Below, one piece after another: positions 1,461 through 14,634 of a DNA stretch of 64,000 bases; within the stretch, counting starts at the first letter, position 1, and the number at the start of each line of letters is the position of its first letter. Origin of the DNA: an uncultured Thermoleophilia bacterium (lineage in GTDB: Bacteria > Actinomycetota > Thermoleophilia > UBA2241); the NCBI GenBank assembly GCA_963702475.1, contig CAVPCT010000003.1:288001-352000 (forward strand), written 5' to 3'. A program made the position numbers and the translations under genes. The notes under the pieces are model-generated. The model was given only the letters and a program-made list of their open reading frames with translations, searched no databases and had not been told where the DNA came from.

Positions 1461-2990
1461 GACGCCGGCGCGGCCTGCGGCGCGGCACGGGCGGCGGGGT
1501 CCTCCCGCCGCTCGTGCCGCCCTTTCGTGTGCCCGCCGCCGAGCAGCGCCTCCAGGAGCGGCAGGAAGTGGTGCACCTTGCCACTGCGGATGGCCCGGTC
1601 CCAGACCGGCTCCAGCTTCTTCCATCCGGCCGTGTACGCGAGGTGGCGGGCGTGCTCGCGGAGGTCGCCGTGAGAGAAGGCGGCCGCGGCGATGTTGCTC
1701 CAGCCGTAGAACTCGTCGTACGCCCGGCGGTGCCCGGCCTCGAGCTCGGCGGCAGTCATCCGCGCGGGGCGGAACACGGCGTGGCGGGTGTCGTAACGGT
1801 CCCAGTCCCGGGTGGTGACGCGTCCCTCGGCGGTGAGACGCCGCTCCAGCGTCGTCCCCGGGTACGGGGTGAGGATGTGGAACGTGGCGGTCTGGAGGCC
1901 GCGCGTGACCGCCCACTCCACGGTGCGTGGGAACACCGATGCGTCGTCGGCGTCCATGCCGAACACGAAGGCCCCGTTGACCATCACGCCGAGGTCGTGC
2001 AGGCGGCGCACGGCGGCGTCGTACTGCGGGGCGCCGTAGATGCTGGCGCCGGCGAAGCCGTCGCCGGCCAGGCTGTCACGCCGGTCGGCGCCGGCCAGGT
2101 TCTGCGTCTTGCCGGCGCTCCTCAGGTTCGCCTCGCTCAGCGTCTCGAAGCCGATGAACAGGCTGCGCAAGCCGCTCTCGACCGCCTTCTCCAGCAGGCC
2201 GGGCCGGAGCACGGCCTCCACCGTGCCGGCCGCTTGCCAGACGCGTCCCATGCCGCGCATGCCGGCGAACAGACGCCTCTGCGAAGGGCGGGCTCCCGAA
2301 GAGGTTGTCGTCGAGGAAGTAGAGGTGACGTCCGGGCAGGCGGTCGATCTCGGCCAGGGCTTCGTCGACCGCCTGCACATAGAAGGACCTGCCGCCGCGG
2401 AAGAACGCCTCCTTGTAGCAGAAATCGCACAGGTGCGGGCAGCCGCGGCTGACGACGAGCGAGTTGGGGACCAGGTAGTTGCGGCGCTTGATGAGGTCGC
2501 GGCGCGCTGGGGGCAGGCCGGCCAGGGTCCGCCGCGTGGAGACGTAGCGCGGCTTGGGCCGGCCGGCCCGGAAGTCGGCGAGAAAGACCGGCCAGGTGTC
2601 GTCGCCGGGGCCGCAGAACACGCTGTCGGCGTGCTGCGCGGCCTCGTCCGGCAGGCTCGTCGGGTGCAGGCCCCCGAGGCAGACGTAGGCTCCTTTGGCG
2701 CGGTAGTGGTCGGCGTAGCGGTAGGCGCGCCCGGCCGAGGTGATGTATGCCTCGATGACGACGAGGTCCGGCTCGTCGTCCAGACGCAGGGTCTCCACGT
2801 GCTCGTCCTGAAGCTCGATGTCGTCGCCGGGATCGAGGTGGCCCGCCAGGGTGGCCAGGCCGAGCGGGGGGAAGAGCGAGTACTTGATCGAGCGTCGGTG
2901 CTGCCCGTCGACGGCCGTCTTGGCCGGGCTGATGAGCTTGACGCGGAGCGGCCGGCCGGCCGCTCCGTCGGGCCCACGTGCGCCGCTCAC
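1457..2990 (-). CDS. B12-binding domain radical SAM protein, frameshifted near 2280
   Basis: PPLGLATLA, SRGCPHLCDFC (CxxxCxxC), FLDDN, IGFET, ILTPYPGT; GTG start overlaps the TetR stop. Confidence 0.85.
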
Positions 2991-3685
2991 CCGACGAGCC
3001 CCGGCTGGGACGCGAAGTGGGCCACCAGCACGTCCAGGCCGGTCTCGAACTCGCCCGGCCTGTCCCACACCGCCAGGCGCATGCCGACCGTCATCATGCT
3101 CGGGTACTCGGCCCAATGGCCCGCCAGCTGGGCGACGATGTCGGAGGTCTGGACCTCGTCGCCCAGCATGCGGGCGTAGCCGAGCCCGAGCGTGTACGCG
3201 CCGAGCACGTGGTACACGGTGGCTGCCCTGTCGGGCGTGAAGCCGGCAACCAGCAGCGTGCTCATGAGCTGCTCCATCCAGCGCCGGCCGCTGGGCGTGC
3301 GCAGGACGGCGGCGGAGATGAGCGGCAGCGCCCGCGGGTGCGCCTCCGCCAGCGCGTGCAGGCCCATGAACAGCTGCCGCACCCGTCGCTGCCAGTTCGG
3401 GTGCGGCGGCGACACTCCGAGCGCCGCCGCGGCGATCGACTCGCCGACCTCGTCGAGGATCTCCGTCTTGCTCGCGAAGTGATGGTAGAGGCTCATCGGT
3501 TTGACGCCGGCGGTCGCCGCGAGCCGGCGCATGTTGAGCGCCTCCAGCCCGTCCTCGTCGATGATCTCGAGGGCGAGTGCGACGATGCGGTCTCTGGTCA
3601 GCGGCACGCGGCGGGGATGCTGTGACGGTCGGGACGCGGCGCCCGTCTCGGCCGCCGCCGCGGCTTCGGTCTCAGTCATGACCAT
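2987..3685 (-). CDS. TetR-family transcriptional regulator (TetR_C type)
   Basis: LTRDRIVALALEIIDEDGLEALNMRRLA...MSLYHHFASK helix-turn-helix. Confidence 0.9.
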   Translation of the reverse strand: MVMTETEAAAAAETGAASRPSQHPRRVPLTRDRIVALALEIIDEDGLEALNMRRLAATAGVKPMSLYHHFASKTEILDEVGESIAAAALGVSPPHPNWQRRVRQLFMGLHALAEAHPRALPLISAAVLRTPSGRRWMEQLMSTLLVAGFTPDRAATVYHVLGAYTLGLGYARMLGDEVQTSDIVAQLAGHWAEYPSMMTVGMRLAVWDRPGEFETGLDVLVAHFASQPGLVG

Positions 3686-3821: not shown

Positions 3822-4043
3822 TCAGAGCGCGTCGAACTCGGCAGGCGTGAGTCCCGCGCGTCGCAGGATGCTTCGGAGGGTGCCGACGGCCACTTCCGGG
3901 TGGCTGGGGACGATCACGACGTACTCTCCCTCGGGCGTCGTGCGGCGGAACTACACGTGACTGCCCCGGGTGTCGCCTTCGACGAATCCCGCGGCCAGCA
4001 GCCGTCGCCGTACTTCGCGGTACGGCAGACGTCTAGGCGGCAT
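3822..4043 (-). CDS. hicA: HicA-family toxin with in-frame TAG at codon 31 (pseudogene or readthrough)
   Basis: Manual translation: MPPRRLPYREVRRRLLAAGFVEGDTRGSHV*FRRTTPEGEYVVIVPSHPEVAVGTLRSILRRAGLTPAEFDAL; GSH, VPxH and GTLRSIL motifs; TAG at 3951-3953. Confidence 0.85.
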
Positions 4044-4236
4044 CTATCTGCGCTGTGACCTTGCGTATCCGGGGCGCTGCCGTGGCAGGGCCCTCGAAGT
4101 AGAGCTCCAGTGCCTCCCGGAGGTTCTCCAGCGCCTCTTCTTCTGTTGCGCCCTGGCTGGCTAGGTCCACGTCCAGGCACTGGGCTACAAAGAGATCGTC
4201 CTCGTTCGTCACGACTGCACTGAACTCGCGGGCCAC
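4033..4236 (-). CDS. hicB: HicB-family antitoxin (short form, no DNA-binding domain)
   Basis: FVAQCLDVDLASQGATEEEALENLREALELYFE; GGAGG RBS before the GTG; overlaps the hicA start. Confidence 0.85.
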   Translation of the reverse strand: MAREFSAVVTNEDDLFVAQCLDVDLASQGATEEEALENLREALELYFEGPATAAPRIRKVTAQIDAA

Positions 4237-4346
4237 CGTCAGCCTCCATCGTCGACAGATCGATAGTAGGCGAGGCTTTCGGTCGGCACAAGGTGGACAT
4301 ACGCGGGAGCCGGCATCGACCCGCGCAGCGGACACCGCTGCACTCG

Positions 4347-5171
4347 TCAGCGCCGCCAGCCGGGCGCCGCGCGGCCGGCCCAGCGGCCGTCGCAGCCGCG
4401 ACGCACGGTGACTGCGGCGCCGAAGCAGGCTGAGAGCGGTTCGTCGGCAAGCACCTCGGCGGCTGGCCCGGCGGCCACGACTCGGCCGTCGCGCAGCAGC
4501 AGGGCGTGCGTGCTGGAGGCCGGCAGCTCCTCGAGATGGTGGGTGACGGTGACGACGGCCGGGGCGGGGTGCTCGCCGGCGAGCGCAGCGAGCGCCGCGA
4601 GCAAGGCTTCCCGGCCGGGCAGGTCCAGGCCATCGGCCGGCTCGTCCAGCAGCAGGAGCGGTGGTCGGTGCATCAGGGCACGGGCGAGCAGCACACGTCG
4701 TCGCTCGCCCTGCGAACAGGTGACGAAGGCGTGCTGCGCGACGGCGCCGCAGCCGAAGCTCTCCAGCAGCTCGGCGGCGCGCTCGCGGTCGCCGGGCTCG
4801 ATGCGCTCGGGCAGGAGCTGTATGGTCCCGGTGATGCCGGTGAGCGTGACCTCGAGCGCCGTGCGCCGCGGCGAGAAGGCGTCCTCAGTCCTCACGTCCA
4901 CGTGCCCGATGCGCTCGCGCAGGGCGCGCAGGTCGACCCGGCCTACGGTCTCGCCGAGGATGCGCACGGCGCCGCGGCTGGGGTGCCGGACGCCGGCGGC
5001 GACGTCGAGCAGCGTGGACTTGCCGGCGCCGTTAGGCCCGAGCACCGCCCATTGCTCGCCGTCGTCTACCGACCAGTTGACGTCGGTGAGGATGGGCTGT
5101 CGCGCCCGCAGGCGGGCGTCCCACTCCCAGACGGTGACGTTCTCAAGTGCGAGGGCGGTGCTCACGGTCAC
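4347..5171 (-). CDS. ABC transporter ATP-binding protein (ModF/YlmA-like)
   Basis: GPNGAGKST Walker A, CSQGERRR signature, LLLLDEP Walker B, VTHH. Confidence 0.85.
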   Translation of the reverse strand: MTVSTALALENVTVWEWDARLRARQPILTDVNWSVDDGEQWAVLGPNGAGKSTLLDVAAGVRHPSRGAVRILGETVGRVDLRALRERIGHVDVRTEDAFSPRRTALEVTLTGITGTIQLLPERIEPGDRERAAELLESFGCGAVAQHAFVTCSQGERRRVLLARALMHRPPLLLLDEPADGLDLPGREALLAALAALAGEHPAPAVVTVTHHLEELPASSTHALLLRDGRVVAAGPAAEVLADEPLSACFGAAVTVRRGCDGRWAGRAAPGWRR

Positions 5172-5216: not shown

Positions 5217-6332
5217 TCAGCCGAGCCGTGCGACGCGTTCGCCGCGCACGCTCAGACGCGCCGCGGCGGAGGCCTCGGCGAGCGCCTCCGGTTCTTCGGA
5301 CGTGAGGCCCACGCGGGCGCGCGCGTGCCCCGTCGGTCGCGCGCCCTCTCTGGGCTTGGGCCAGCCGCGCACGGCTTCTTCGACCGCCGCGCGGCCGCCC
5401 GCGGCGAACGCCGCCCCCAGCCGGGCGCACACGTCGGCGTCGGGGCTCGCGGCGGCGAACTCGGCGGCCGCGAGCGCGTAGCCGTTGCCGTTGAAGCACA
5501 GCGAGACGCCGCCCCAGCCCCGCACCGCGTCGAGGGGCGGCGCGTCGGTGATGGAATCGCCGACGTACATCACGCCGTCGCCCTCCACGGCCTCGGCGGC
5601 GACGATCTCCTCGAGCGCGGCGAGCTTCATGCCGCCGCCCACGGGGCGCACGGCGGCCACCAGCTCGCCGCTCACCCGGCCCTGCATGTCGCGCCAGAAG
5701 AGCTCGTCCAGCTGCGCGACCGTCACGGCGTCCACCGCGGACAGATCGTCCGCCGACGCCGCGCCTTCGGGGATCTCGATGACGTCCCGGCTCATCACGC
5801 GCCCCGCCTGCTCGCGCAGCCACGCCTTCTCGTCCTGCGGCACGTCCCACGCGTCCAGGCTCAGCTCCGTGCAGCGGACGTGGTCCATCGCGAACCCGCT
5901 CAGCGCGCACAGGGCCTTGAGGTACGGCGTGTACGACGTCGAGATGATGTACGCGGGCATGAGGTTCCCGATCTGGCCCAGCGCCTTGAGCGCCTCGGGC
6001 ACCAGCAGGACTCCCTCCGCGCTGAACAGCTCCACATCCTCGTCGGTGACCTCGAACGCCTTGAGGAACGGAGGCAGCAGCCGCAGCGTGTCGCCGGCGT
6101 TGTAGCCCGGCTTGTGGAGCACATCGGCGAGGAAGTCGTCGTACCGGCTCAGGCGCGCGAAGATCTCCGCCCCGTCCGGGATGAAGCGCTCGGCGATCTC
6201 CTGGGCGTTGTCGTTGCGGGTGAGCGGGCCTTCGCAGTCGGTGACGTAGACGCGCCGGGACGCGCCGGCTTCGTCGGCCGGGCTGCCGGCGCCGGCCTCG
6301 CTCCCAGCGCCGGTCGCGCCTTCGGCGCTCAC
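5217..6332 (-). CDS. HAD-superfamily hydrolase, EhaR/COG4030-like
   Basis: TDCEGP motif I, ISTSY motif II, GGGMK, YVGDSITD motif IV, FNGNGYA. Confidence 0.75.
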   Translation of the reverse strand: MSAEGATGAGSEAGAGSPADEAGASRRVYVTDCEGPLTRNDNAQEIAERFIPDGAEIFARLSRYDDFLADVLHKPGYNAGDTLRLLPPFLKAFEVTDEDVELFSAEGVLLVPEALKALGQIGNLMPAYIISTSYTPYLKALCALSGFAMDHVRCTELSLDAWDVPQDEKAWLREQAGRVMSRDVIEIPEGAASADDLSAVDAVTVAQLDELFWRDMQGRVSGELVAAVRPVGGGMKLAALEEIVAAEAVEGDGVMYVGDSITDAPPLDAVRGWGGVSLCFNGNGYALAAAEFAAASPDADVCARLGAAFAAGGRAAVEEAVRGWPKPREGARPTGHARARVGLTSEEPEALAEASAAARLSVRGERVARLG

Positions 6333-13161: not shown

Positions 13162-14634
13162 ATGAGACGAGGAGCTCAGAACGCCCTTCACAGCGGAGGC
13201 GTGTCGCAGACCCTCTTCACTGAGGCCGACCTGGACGACCTGCACTCCGCCACCGTCCAGGTCCTGGAGCGCGCCGGCGTGCTGGTCGAGAGCGACGAGG
13301 CGCTGAACGTCTTCGCCGACGGCGGTTGCCGCGTGGACCGGGAGACGCACATCGTGAAGATCCCGGAGCACGTGCTGGCCGATGCCCTGGCCTCGGCGAA
13401 GTCGAGCTTCTGGCTGTGCGGCCGCGACCCCGAGGACGACGTCCTCGTGGAGGTCGGCCGCACCTGCGTGTCGCCGTTCGCCGAGGGCCTGCTCGTGAAC
13501 GACCTCGAGACCGGCGAGAACCGGCCGTCCACGAAGGCCGACGTGGCCATGCACTGCCGCATCGCCGACGCCCTCGAGCAGATGGACTTCAACATCGTCT
13601 CGGTGACGGCGCGCGACGTGCCTCCGGAGACGGCCGCCGTCCACAACCTCGCGGCGGCCCTGCCCAACACCACCAAGCCCATGAACATGTCGATGACCAC
13701 GCGGCACGAGGCGGAGCTGTGCATCGACATGGCGGCGGCGGTCGTCGGCGGCCGCGATGCGCTTCGCGAACGGCCGCTGGTCTACTTCGGCAGCTGCCCC
13801 GTGGCGCCCATGAACCTCTGCGAGACGCTCACCGACGCGTTGATCCCGACGGTGCGCGCCGGCCTGCCGTTCCTCACGATCTCCATGGGCATGGCCGGCG
13901 GATCGACGCCGATCACGCTGGCCGGCACGCTCGTCGTCCAGAACACGGAACTACTGGCGACGTACGTGCTCACGCAGCTGGTGAACCGCGGCAACGCGTT
14001 CGTCTACGGCAACTCGACCTGCACGATGGACCTGCGCTGGGGCTCCAGCGCCGTGGGCACGCCGGAGACGGCGCTGTACCAGGCCGGCAGCGTCGCCTTG
14101 GCGACCTACTACGGCCTGCCGAGCTGGTCCGCCGGCTACTAGGCGGACTCCAAGGTGAGCGACTGCCAGGCCGGGCACGAGAAGACACTCACCGGGCTCA
14201 CGACGCTGCTGGCAGGGTCCAGCATCATCTACGGCCCCGGGATGCTCGAGTCGGGCATGACCTTCGACCCGGCCCAGCTCGTCATCGACGACGAGATCGT
14301 GGCCATGACGCGCTTTCTCAAGCGGGGTGTCGCCGTCAACGATGCGACCACGGCGATCGAGGAGATCATCGCGGTCGGGCCGGCCGGCAACTTCCTGGAG
14401 CGCGACAGCACGCTCACGGGCTTCCGGTCTCTCACGTCACCGCGCCTGATCGACCGCAAGGTGCGCGAGGCCTGGGAGGCCGACGGCTCGCCCGACTTCT
14501 ACCAGAAGGCCCGCGTGCGCGCGCAGCAGCTTCTCGCGGAGCACGAGGTCGAGCCGCTCGGCGGCGGCGTGCTCGCCCAGATCCAGTCCATCGTCGTCGA
14601 GGCGGACGCGCAGTACGCAGCGGGCGGCGCGTGA
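13162..14634 (+). CDS. mttB: Trimethylamine:corrinoid methyltransferase, pyrrolysine-containing (in-frame TAG 14140-14142)
   Basis: ORFs 13162-14142 and 14155-14634 share a frame; joined sequence PSWSAGY-TAG-ADSKVSDCQAGHEKT; GGSTPITLAGTLV and GTPE motifs; 490 aa with amber at codon 327. Confidence 0.9.

Follow-up and report, generated by a model that had tools for sequence, protein, structure and literature searches.

A private in-frame TAG in a hicA toxin gene of a pyrrolysine-decoding Thermoleophilia bacterium, probably an ordinary nonsense mutation

The window, which is the whole 64,000-nucleotide stretch of DNA that was analysed, carries a hicA toxin gene interrupted by an in-frame TAG, in a bacterium that decodes UAG as pyrrolysine (Pyl). 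We consider this TAG to be, very probably, an ordinary, recent and lineage-private nonsense mutation that inactivates the toxin, in a locus that is decaying across the genus, with leaky Pyl decoding at the codon a plausible, unselected by-product. An ordinary toxin-inactivating mutation had been offered as the simpler explanation in the first-pass annotation, alongside the idea of a toxin gated by the genetic code, and it is favoured by the orthologues, by the other lesions found in them and by the mutational bias towards TAG.

The interrupted hicA gene and its partner

Translated, hicA has 73 codons before its TGA stop, and the only TAG in this frame is codon 31 (CTA on the plus strand), the product reading MPPRRLPYREVRRRLLAAGFVEGDTRGSHV before this codon and FRRTTPEGEY... 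after it (motif context TRGSHV-stop-FRRT). With X placed at the TAG, the protein matched the Pfam HicA_toxin profile (PF07927) over its entire length (profile positions 1–58 of 58; HicA residues 8–65), with an E-value of 1.3e-14 and 54.5 bits against a cut-off of 27, and the intact HicA orthologue of genome G020 scored 61.7 bits. As this match spans the stop it is not due to chance and the hicA frame continues past the TAG, and the earlier description of a full-length 73-codon gene broken only at codon 31 is thus confirmed by both the translation and the whole-profile match. Under the standard code, with TAG at codon 31 and RF1 present, there is no uninterrupted frame for the whole HicA domain. 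The closest solved structure by sequence search was the HicA-like 1whz_A (E 9.8e-9), and HicA gave no match in NCBIfam.

The TAG sits two residues past a conserved Gly-Ser-His, and G27, S28 and H29 are all present in this HicA and invariant in 101 of 101 relatives of its subfamily. In Streptococcus pneumoniae HicA, the equivalent of His29 is His36, reported as essential for RNase activity, and the residue equivalent to codon 31 is Lys38 (His36+2), described at the antitoxin interface, where it forms a salt bridge (PMC6159526). By analogy, the lesion would strike a constrained, surface-exposed residue adjoining the active site.

Directly upstream of hicA lies a small gene that overlaps the hicA start by 11 nt, its own TAG stop falling inside hicA codons 3–4. 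It had been called hicB, and its position was borne out, with a conserved partner gene that both adjoins and overlaps hicA, although it passes only DUF7387 in Pfam (29.2 bits vs 27.9) and not the HicB families (PF15919 and PF05534), being below cut-off for HicB_lk_antitox (13.2 vs 27 bits) and UPF0150 (14.4 vs 27.3 bits). Likewise, the partner had no NCBIfam match and no solved relative by sequence search. A homologue is nonetheless present in 166 of 176 hicA loci, directly upstream and on the same strand in 130, and since it recurs beside hicA we regard it as a conserved partner for which "HicB-like" is a fair working name. Read-through of the partner TAG in the window's genome would append 118 residues, mostly Arg/Pro-rich. 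The partner stop is TAG in all four genomes with an intact partner (G000, the window's own, and G020, G062 and G001, whose loci outside the window are L011, L015 and L023), a constancy explained by its being embedded in hicA codons 3–4; judged from these sequences, the shared stop argues that TAG termination works well enough in the hicBA operon. Furthermore, in G001 the partner is intact and conserved (omega 0.08 vs G062) although the hicA beside it is internally deleted, so an intact partner is no evidence for an active toxin. Coordinates of the module and its surroundings are given in Table 1.

Table 1. Positions in the window of the hicBA module, its conserved flanks and the nearby mttB gene
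Feature	Position	Strand	Basis
hicA	3822..4043	-	translation; Pfam HicA_toxin; closest solved relative 1whz_A
In-frame TAG, codon 31, in place of the ancestral Lys codon AAG	3951..3953	-	codon list; AAG in orthologues; Lys in relatives
Codons of Gly27-Ser28-His29, the motif conserved in HicA, whose His is the putative catalytic residue	3957..3965	-	invariant in 101/101
Codon 62, CGC (Arg); CAG (Gln) in every relative	3858..3860	-	Gln in 101/101; the other six syntenic copies all have CAG
Candidate antitoxin of 67 codons (HicB-like partner), starting with GTG and ending in TAG at 4033-4035	4033..4236	-	translation; DUF7387
GGAGG, putative Shine-Dalgarno-like motif, 6 nt before the partner GTG	4243..4247	-	read from the sequence
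TetR-family regulator, conserved flank	2987..3685	-	Pfam TetR_N, TetR_C_1; homologue flanks hicA in L011, L014, L015, L023, L025, L026
ABC-transporter ATPase, conserved flank	4347..5171	-	Pfam ABC_tran; homologue flanks the module in L011, L015, L023, L025
mttB (trimethylamine methyltransferase), in-frame TAG at 14140-14142; outside the hicBA module	13162..14634	+	AGY-stop-ADSK; MTTB profile

Pyrrolysine decoding and the meaning of TAG in the genome

The assembly from which the window comes (G000) comprises 9 contigs and 4.3 Mb at 70% GC, and is estimated to be 93.78% complete with 6.49% contamination; the window lies on contig C3 (1.14 Mb). This contig also carries pylB, pylC, pylD, tRNA-Pyl, pylSn and pylSc, with all profile matches above curated cut-offs (PylB 438.1, PylC 323.8 (summed), PylD 209.1, PylS_Nterm 126.2 and PylS_Cterm 314.6 bits), and ARAGORN identified a tRNA with anticodon CUA at C3:641046-641118 as tRNA-Pyl. 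The pyl genes are split into a pylB-pylC-pylD-tRNAPyl-pylSn cluster (C3:637885-642485) and the catalytic pylSc (C3:657647-658372), about 15 kb off on the opposite strand. A tRNA-Sec is also present in the genome (C3:167171-167268).

The mttB gene that had been placed 9 kb from hicA is real and has its TAG at the canonical MTTB site, with the MTTB profile matching at positions 32–337 before the TAG and 341–492 after it (locus L196). Across the genome there are 16 methylamine methyltransferase genes with TAG at the canonical Pyl site, namely 11 MTTB (one of these mttB genes being an N-terminally truncated fragment), 4 Dimeth_Pyl (mtbB) and 1 MtmB (mtmB), which split in the profiles at about 337/341, 353/355 and 195/197, respectively. 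The pyl genes, tRNA-Pyl and these TAG-split methyltransferases together uphold the earlier claim that the organism reads UAG as Pyl, and rather than lacking pyl genes, which was to count against a code-gated toxin, the genome holds the full set on the contig of hicA itself. PylS scored above cut-off in 47 of the genus's 54 genomes, G020, G062, G001, G008 and G053 among them, and Pyl decoding is thus ancestral in the genus. In this high-GC lineage the window's genome combines a large pyrroproteome with dual expansion of the code.

TAG is still used as a stop. The stops of 2132 long coding-like ORFs were TGA in 1773, TAG in 296 (14%) and TAA in 63, RF1 is present (477 bits vs a cut-off of 423), and TAG stands between the genes of housekeeping pairs such as SecY|Adk and IF3|L35. 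A second in-frame stop within 10 codons followed 9.8% of TAG stops and 12.9% of TGA stops, with no excess of nearby back-up stops at TAG over TGA. TAG is therefore not reassigned, and UAG is ambiguous, serving as both stop and Pyl codon. By comparison this usage matches the ambiguous UAG of Methanosarcina acetivorans, in which UAG is reported to need no special motif to give both long and short forms, and expression of the pyl genes to be up at least fourfold on trimethylamine (PMC12626013). In the systems studied there, Pyl requires no insertion element (PMC12626013), and some full-length HicA is physically expected for that reason. After the hicA TAG we found no stable, PYLIS-like RNA structure (z +1.48; 190 of 200 shuffled sequences folded equally well or better).

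We also screened the genome for same-frame, coding-like ORF pairs parted by one stop, using GC3 filters that are crude and make the result a lower bound, as hicA itself was missed because of the GC3 of its N-terminal part (0.70). The screen yielded 75 TAG, 111 TGA and 19 TAA pairs, though TAG is so small a share of all stops, and the TAG pairs were merged to 72 regions and covered by a Pfam split-domain scan, with the pieces taken separately under the standard code. In 16 of these 72 regions a single Pfam domain was split by TAG, all of them methylamine methyltransferases; the remainder were almost all two different adjacent genes or had no Pfam match, and among the 72 regions there was no non-methyltransferase gene with a conserved in-frame TAG.

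Two possible further TAG-split cases (L240 and L253) also look like lesions from their sequences. L240 (G000:C5:889589-892951, minus strand) encodes a large surface-type repeat protein with Big_9, Cadherin-like and CarboxypepD_reg domains, in which TAG in repeat 1 stands against TGG (Trp) at the corresponding place in repeats 2 and 3, the sole difference in 480 nt; this TAG represents either a nonsense change of very recent date or a variant of assembly or strain and, like that of hicA, would be partly suppressed by Pyl-tRNA. L253 (G000:C9:221422-221958, plus strand) is a corrinoid-protein-like gene with an in-frame TAG inside its B12-binding_2 domain, the match to profile positions 41–73 beginning right after the stop and being followed by a GDxHDIGK motif. 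Its 3' end also seems shortened, and it is probably a pseudogene. Two more toxin-antitoxin pairs are parted only by an in-frame TAG, HigB and an HTH antitoxin (C3:538968-539573, L200) and a FitA-like VapB and PIN VapC (C3:1118441-1119151, L208). Read-through by Pyl-tRNA would yield toxin-antitoxin fusions at both, and the in-frame TAG may be chance, as one third of adjacent pairs are in frame.

The ancestral codon and the state of the locus across the genus

Over 176 related loci the position aligned with codon 31 holds K 117 times, V 45 times, I 7 times and M, A and R 1 time each, with a gap in 2 and 2 uncovered, and none of these loci has TAG at this position. Our HicA falls in the GSHVKF subfamily, all 101 members of which have Lys here, so the statement that many HicA proteins carry this residue holds well. 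The single substitution AAG to TAG proposed earlier also proved correct, the ancestral codon being AAG as in orthologues G020, G062, G046 and G053. The closest relative found in a large protein collection (P0002) is an uninterrupted 73-aa protein of 89% identity with Lys31 and Gln62, and P0002 to P0007 all have Lys at the codon-31 position. Scans of metagenome contigs and genome contigs gave no orthologue above 63–64% identity.

TAG is also the stop codon that mutation would be expected to produce here. With the codon usage of this genome, three mutation models put the share of one-base nonsense changes that yield TAG at 66.5–69.4%, and Lys is encoded by AAG 18371 times compared with 991 for AAA. 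Since Lys is nearly always AAG, a random Lys-to-stop mutation must be TAG, and because TAG is the expected nonsense codon its presence is in itself no hint of Pyl use.

We compared the locus across the 54 genomes of the genus, where protein search detected HicA in 6 genomes at E<=1e-6 and in 9 of 41 relatives at E<=1e-3, and found it to be syntenic in seven (G000 and six others). The module lies between TetR and the ABC ATPase in G020, G001, G062 and G053, and in G046 the TetR flank is seen, the locus sequence covering only that side. Only G020 and G062 have an intact hicA, both with AAG at codon 31. In G046 a 2-nt gap follows directly on the ATG and there is also a TGA, and in G053 a 2-nt gap causes a frameshift and little remains of the partner gene, codon 31 being AAG in both; in G001 operon positions 244–366 are replaced by 29 nt, which deletes codon 31 and leaves the partner intact; and G008 retains only the C-terminal half of hicA, in which codon 31 is not alignable. 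Thus, with the TAG of G000 included, hicA is broken in five of seven syntenic copies, each by a different lesion, and these sequences indicate that the hicBA module is decaying across the genus. The remnant in G008 (L014) lies between TetR and a homologue, recognised by eye, of the window gene at 5217-6332, and a single larger deletion has probably taken out the ABC ATPase gene, the partner and the 5' half of hicA, none of which is present. Among 147 near-full-length hicA homologues elsewhere (genomes of 56–70% GC), six have in-frame stops (TAA 2, TGA 3, TAG 1), and copies of hicA broken by nonsense are thus common there too.

Five orthologous copies retain codon 31, and this is TAG in one and AAG in the other four. 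The proposed check of whether TAG co-occurs with pyl genes in orthologues therefore came out negative, as the orthologues have AAG although pylS is genus-wide. In these data the TAG occurs in no other strain, and this too counts against a code-gated toxin.

We looked further at constraint on the interrupted gene. All residues that are invariant in relatives are kept in our HicA except Lys31, replaced by TAG, and Gln62, whose CAG is kept even in the broken syntenic copies. When each of 102 sequences was left out in turn, two deviations at otherwise invariant columns occurred only in G000, with one in 3 sequences and none in 98, and this hints, if modestly, at relaxed constraint. The remaining measures were neutral. 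The subfamily-HMM score was 99.7 bits, compared with 104.2 for intact G020; omega after the TAG, measured against G020, was 0.21, but dS is saturated (1.3–1.8) and this value mostly reflects history before the TAG mutation; changes specific to G000 at sites unanimous in the others were few at 13 (7 nonsynonymous, 6 synonymous), with 5 in G020 and 7 in G062; and derived changes between G000 and P0002 appear by eye to be about evenly divided between the two lineages. Because HMM score, omega, branch counts and the P0002 comparison are all neutral, the codon-31 lesion is probably young. Contrary to decay, the hicA frame is otherwise intact, the partner is intact and there is no clear decay after the TAG.

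Alternative readings and significance

In the explanation we favour, one A-to-T change would have turned the invariant Lys31 codon AAG into TAG and disabled hicA. At the resulting UAG, RF1 and Pyl-tRNA(CUA) would be expected to compete, as is established for Pyl decoding, with most ribosomes predicted to stop after residue 30 and to release a fragment without most of the HicA fold, and a minor, condition-dependent fraction predicted to make full-length HicA with Pyl31 under expression of the pyl genes. Read-through would also be expected at the partner TAG on this mRNA. We infer that this leakiness is a by-product and not a selected switch.

A selected switch would mean that the TAG is maintained and full-length HicA(Pyl31) made only with the pyl genes on, such as in methylamine growth, so that toxin dose is tied to metabolism, and in one variant read-through of the partner TAG might simultaneously corrupt the antitoxin. 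The complete Pyl machinery does share the 1.14-Mb contig with hicA, and in M. acetivorans UAG gives long and short forms and trimethylamine induces the pyl genes (PMC12626013), yet with pylS genus-wide only one of the five orthologues that retain the codon has TAG, and the screen gave no other non-methyltransferase with a conserved in-frame TAG. Lys is the parent of Pyl and the equivalent Lys38 of S. pneumoniae salt-bridges the antitoxin (PMC6159526), but the 89%-identical P0002 has Lys and TAG is the nonsense codon expected in this genome. Similarly, against an ORF that is intact apart from the TAG, with its partner intact, stand the extra change at invariant Gln62 and the four other syntenic copies that are broken otherwise. 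With the TAG private, AAG accompanying pylS in the orthologues and the locus independently broken in four other genomes, the claim of a code-gated toxin is not supported and we regard such selection as improbable. There is likewise only a small chance that the pair forms a natural amber switch, in which Pyl-tRNA abundance would shift it from a fragment and good antitoxin to Pyl31 toxin and corrupted antitoxin. If true, both genes of the module would depend on UAG, the partner ending in TAG and the toxin needing read-through, and Pyl at position 31, which contacts the antitoxin in the solved HicBA complex, could weaken neutralisation.

The possibility of a base-call error had also been raised, and an artefact of sequencing or assembly, or a variant carried by a minority of a population whose true codon is AAG, would fit an assembly of nine contigs with the contamination estimated above, as well as two contigs ~93–95% identical that span the TAG site (X2, record 12; X3, record 22), each with one A>T difference somewhere in the stretch compared. 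However, a transversion in a non-repetitive, non-homopolymer context is an atypical error, and a public contig from a separate assembly (X1 record 4, 191 nt at a depth of about 5), which may stem from the same source sample, has 0 differences over 3881-4071, TAG included, making such an error very unlikely. As for the truncated products, either the N-terminal peptide of 30 residues or a C-terminal fragment arising by internal initiation could in principle act as a partner decoy or regulator, and a GTG at codon 43 does open a 31-codon frame (3822-3917); neither product, however, contains the whole HicA domain, for which the Pfam match needs residues 8–65, and no relative has such a split. Retention of the partner gene fits this role, but the partner is also retained in G001, where hicA is internally deleted, and we find functional fragments extremely unlikely.

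Binding between HicA and HicB is textbook knowledge. The module shares with S. pneumoniae HicBA and Burkholderia pseudomallei HicA a small dsRBD-type HicA, the Gly-Ser-His motif and a small adjoining partner, and with the former also the partner-then-toxin order and, ancestrally, the Lys at His+2 (Lys38; PMC6159526). Unlike these HicAB modules, its toxin frame is interrupted by TAG, and its partner, of 67 aa, is without a recognisable DNA-binding domain and scores above cut-off for DUF7387 and not for the HicB families. It resembles pseudogenised chromosomal toxins in having one inactivating lesion in the toxin, a kept antitoxin and independent lesions in orthologues, but differs from the usual ones in that a natural suppressor tRNA can partly suppress the TAG, so inactivation is probably incomplete and condition-dependent.

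The nearest parallel to an in-frame UAG without need for Pyl chemistry is the sensor kinase RdmS of M. acetivorans, described as a non-methyltransferase Pyl protein that arose by drift and for which read-through has been shown experimentally; short and long forms would be expected from hicA as they are from RdmS (PMC12626013). Unlike RdmS, the hicA TAG is common to no relative, the host is a bacterium with TAG as 14% of stops, and read-through is predicted. Engineered amber switches, used for toxins and biocontainment, make a toxic or essential protein depend on suppression by PylRS/tRNAPyl; the concept is the same as for hicA, the engineered ones being synthetic designs. Literature on pyrrolysine, toxin-antitoxin and amber gave, by title, no natural toxin with a Pyl codon.

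As nonsense mutations at high GC are mostly TAG, pseudogenes in a Pyl-decoding organism mimic Pyl proteins, and annotation of Pyl decoders may therefore report them as "new Pyl proteins" unless orthologues are checked. The genus is of interest for genetic-code expansion, at 70% GC with pylS in 47 of 54 genomes and, in the window's genome, 16 Pyl-dependent methyltransferase genes and a tRNA-Sec. Within it, hicA offers a clean natural test case of ambiguous UAG decoding acting on an unselected nonsense allele.
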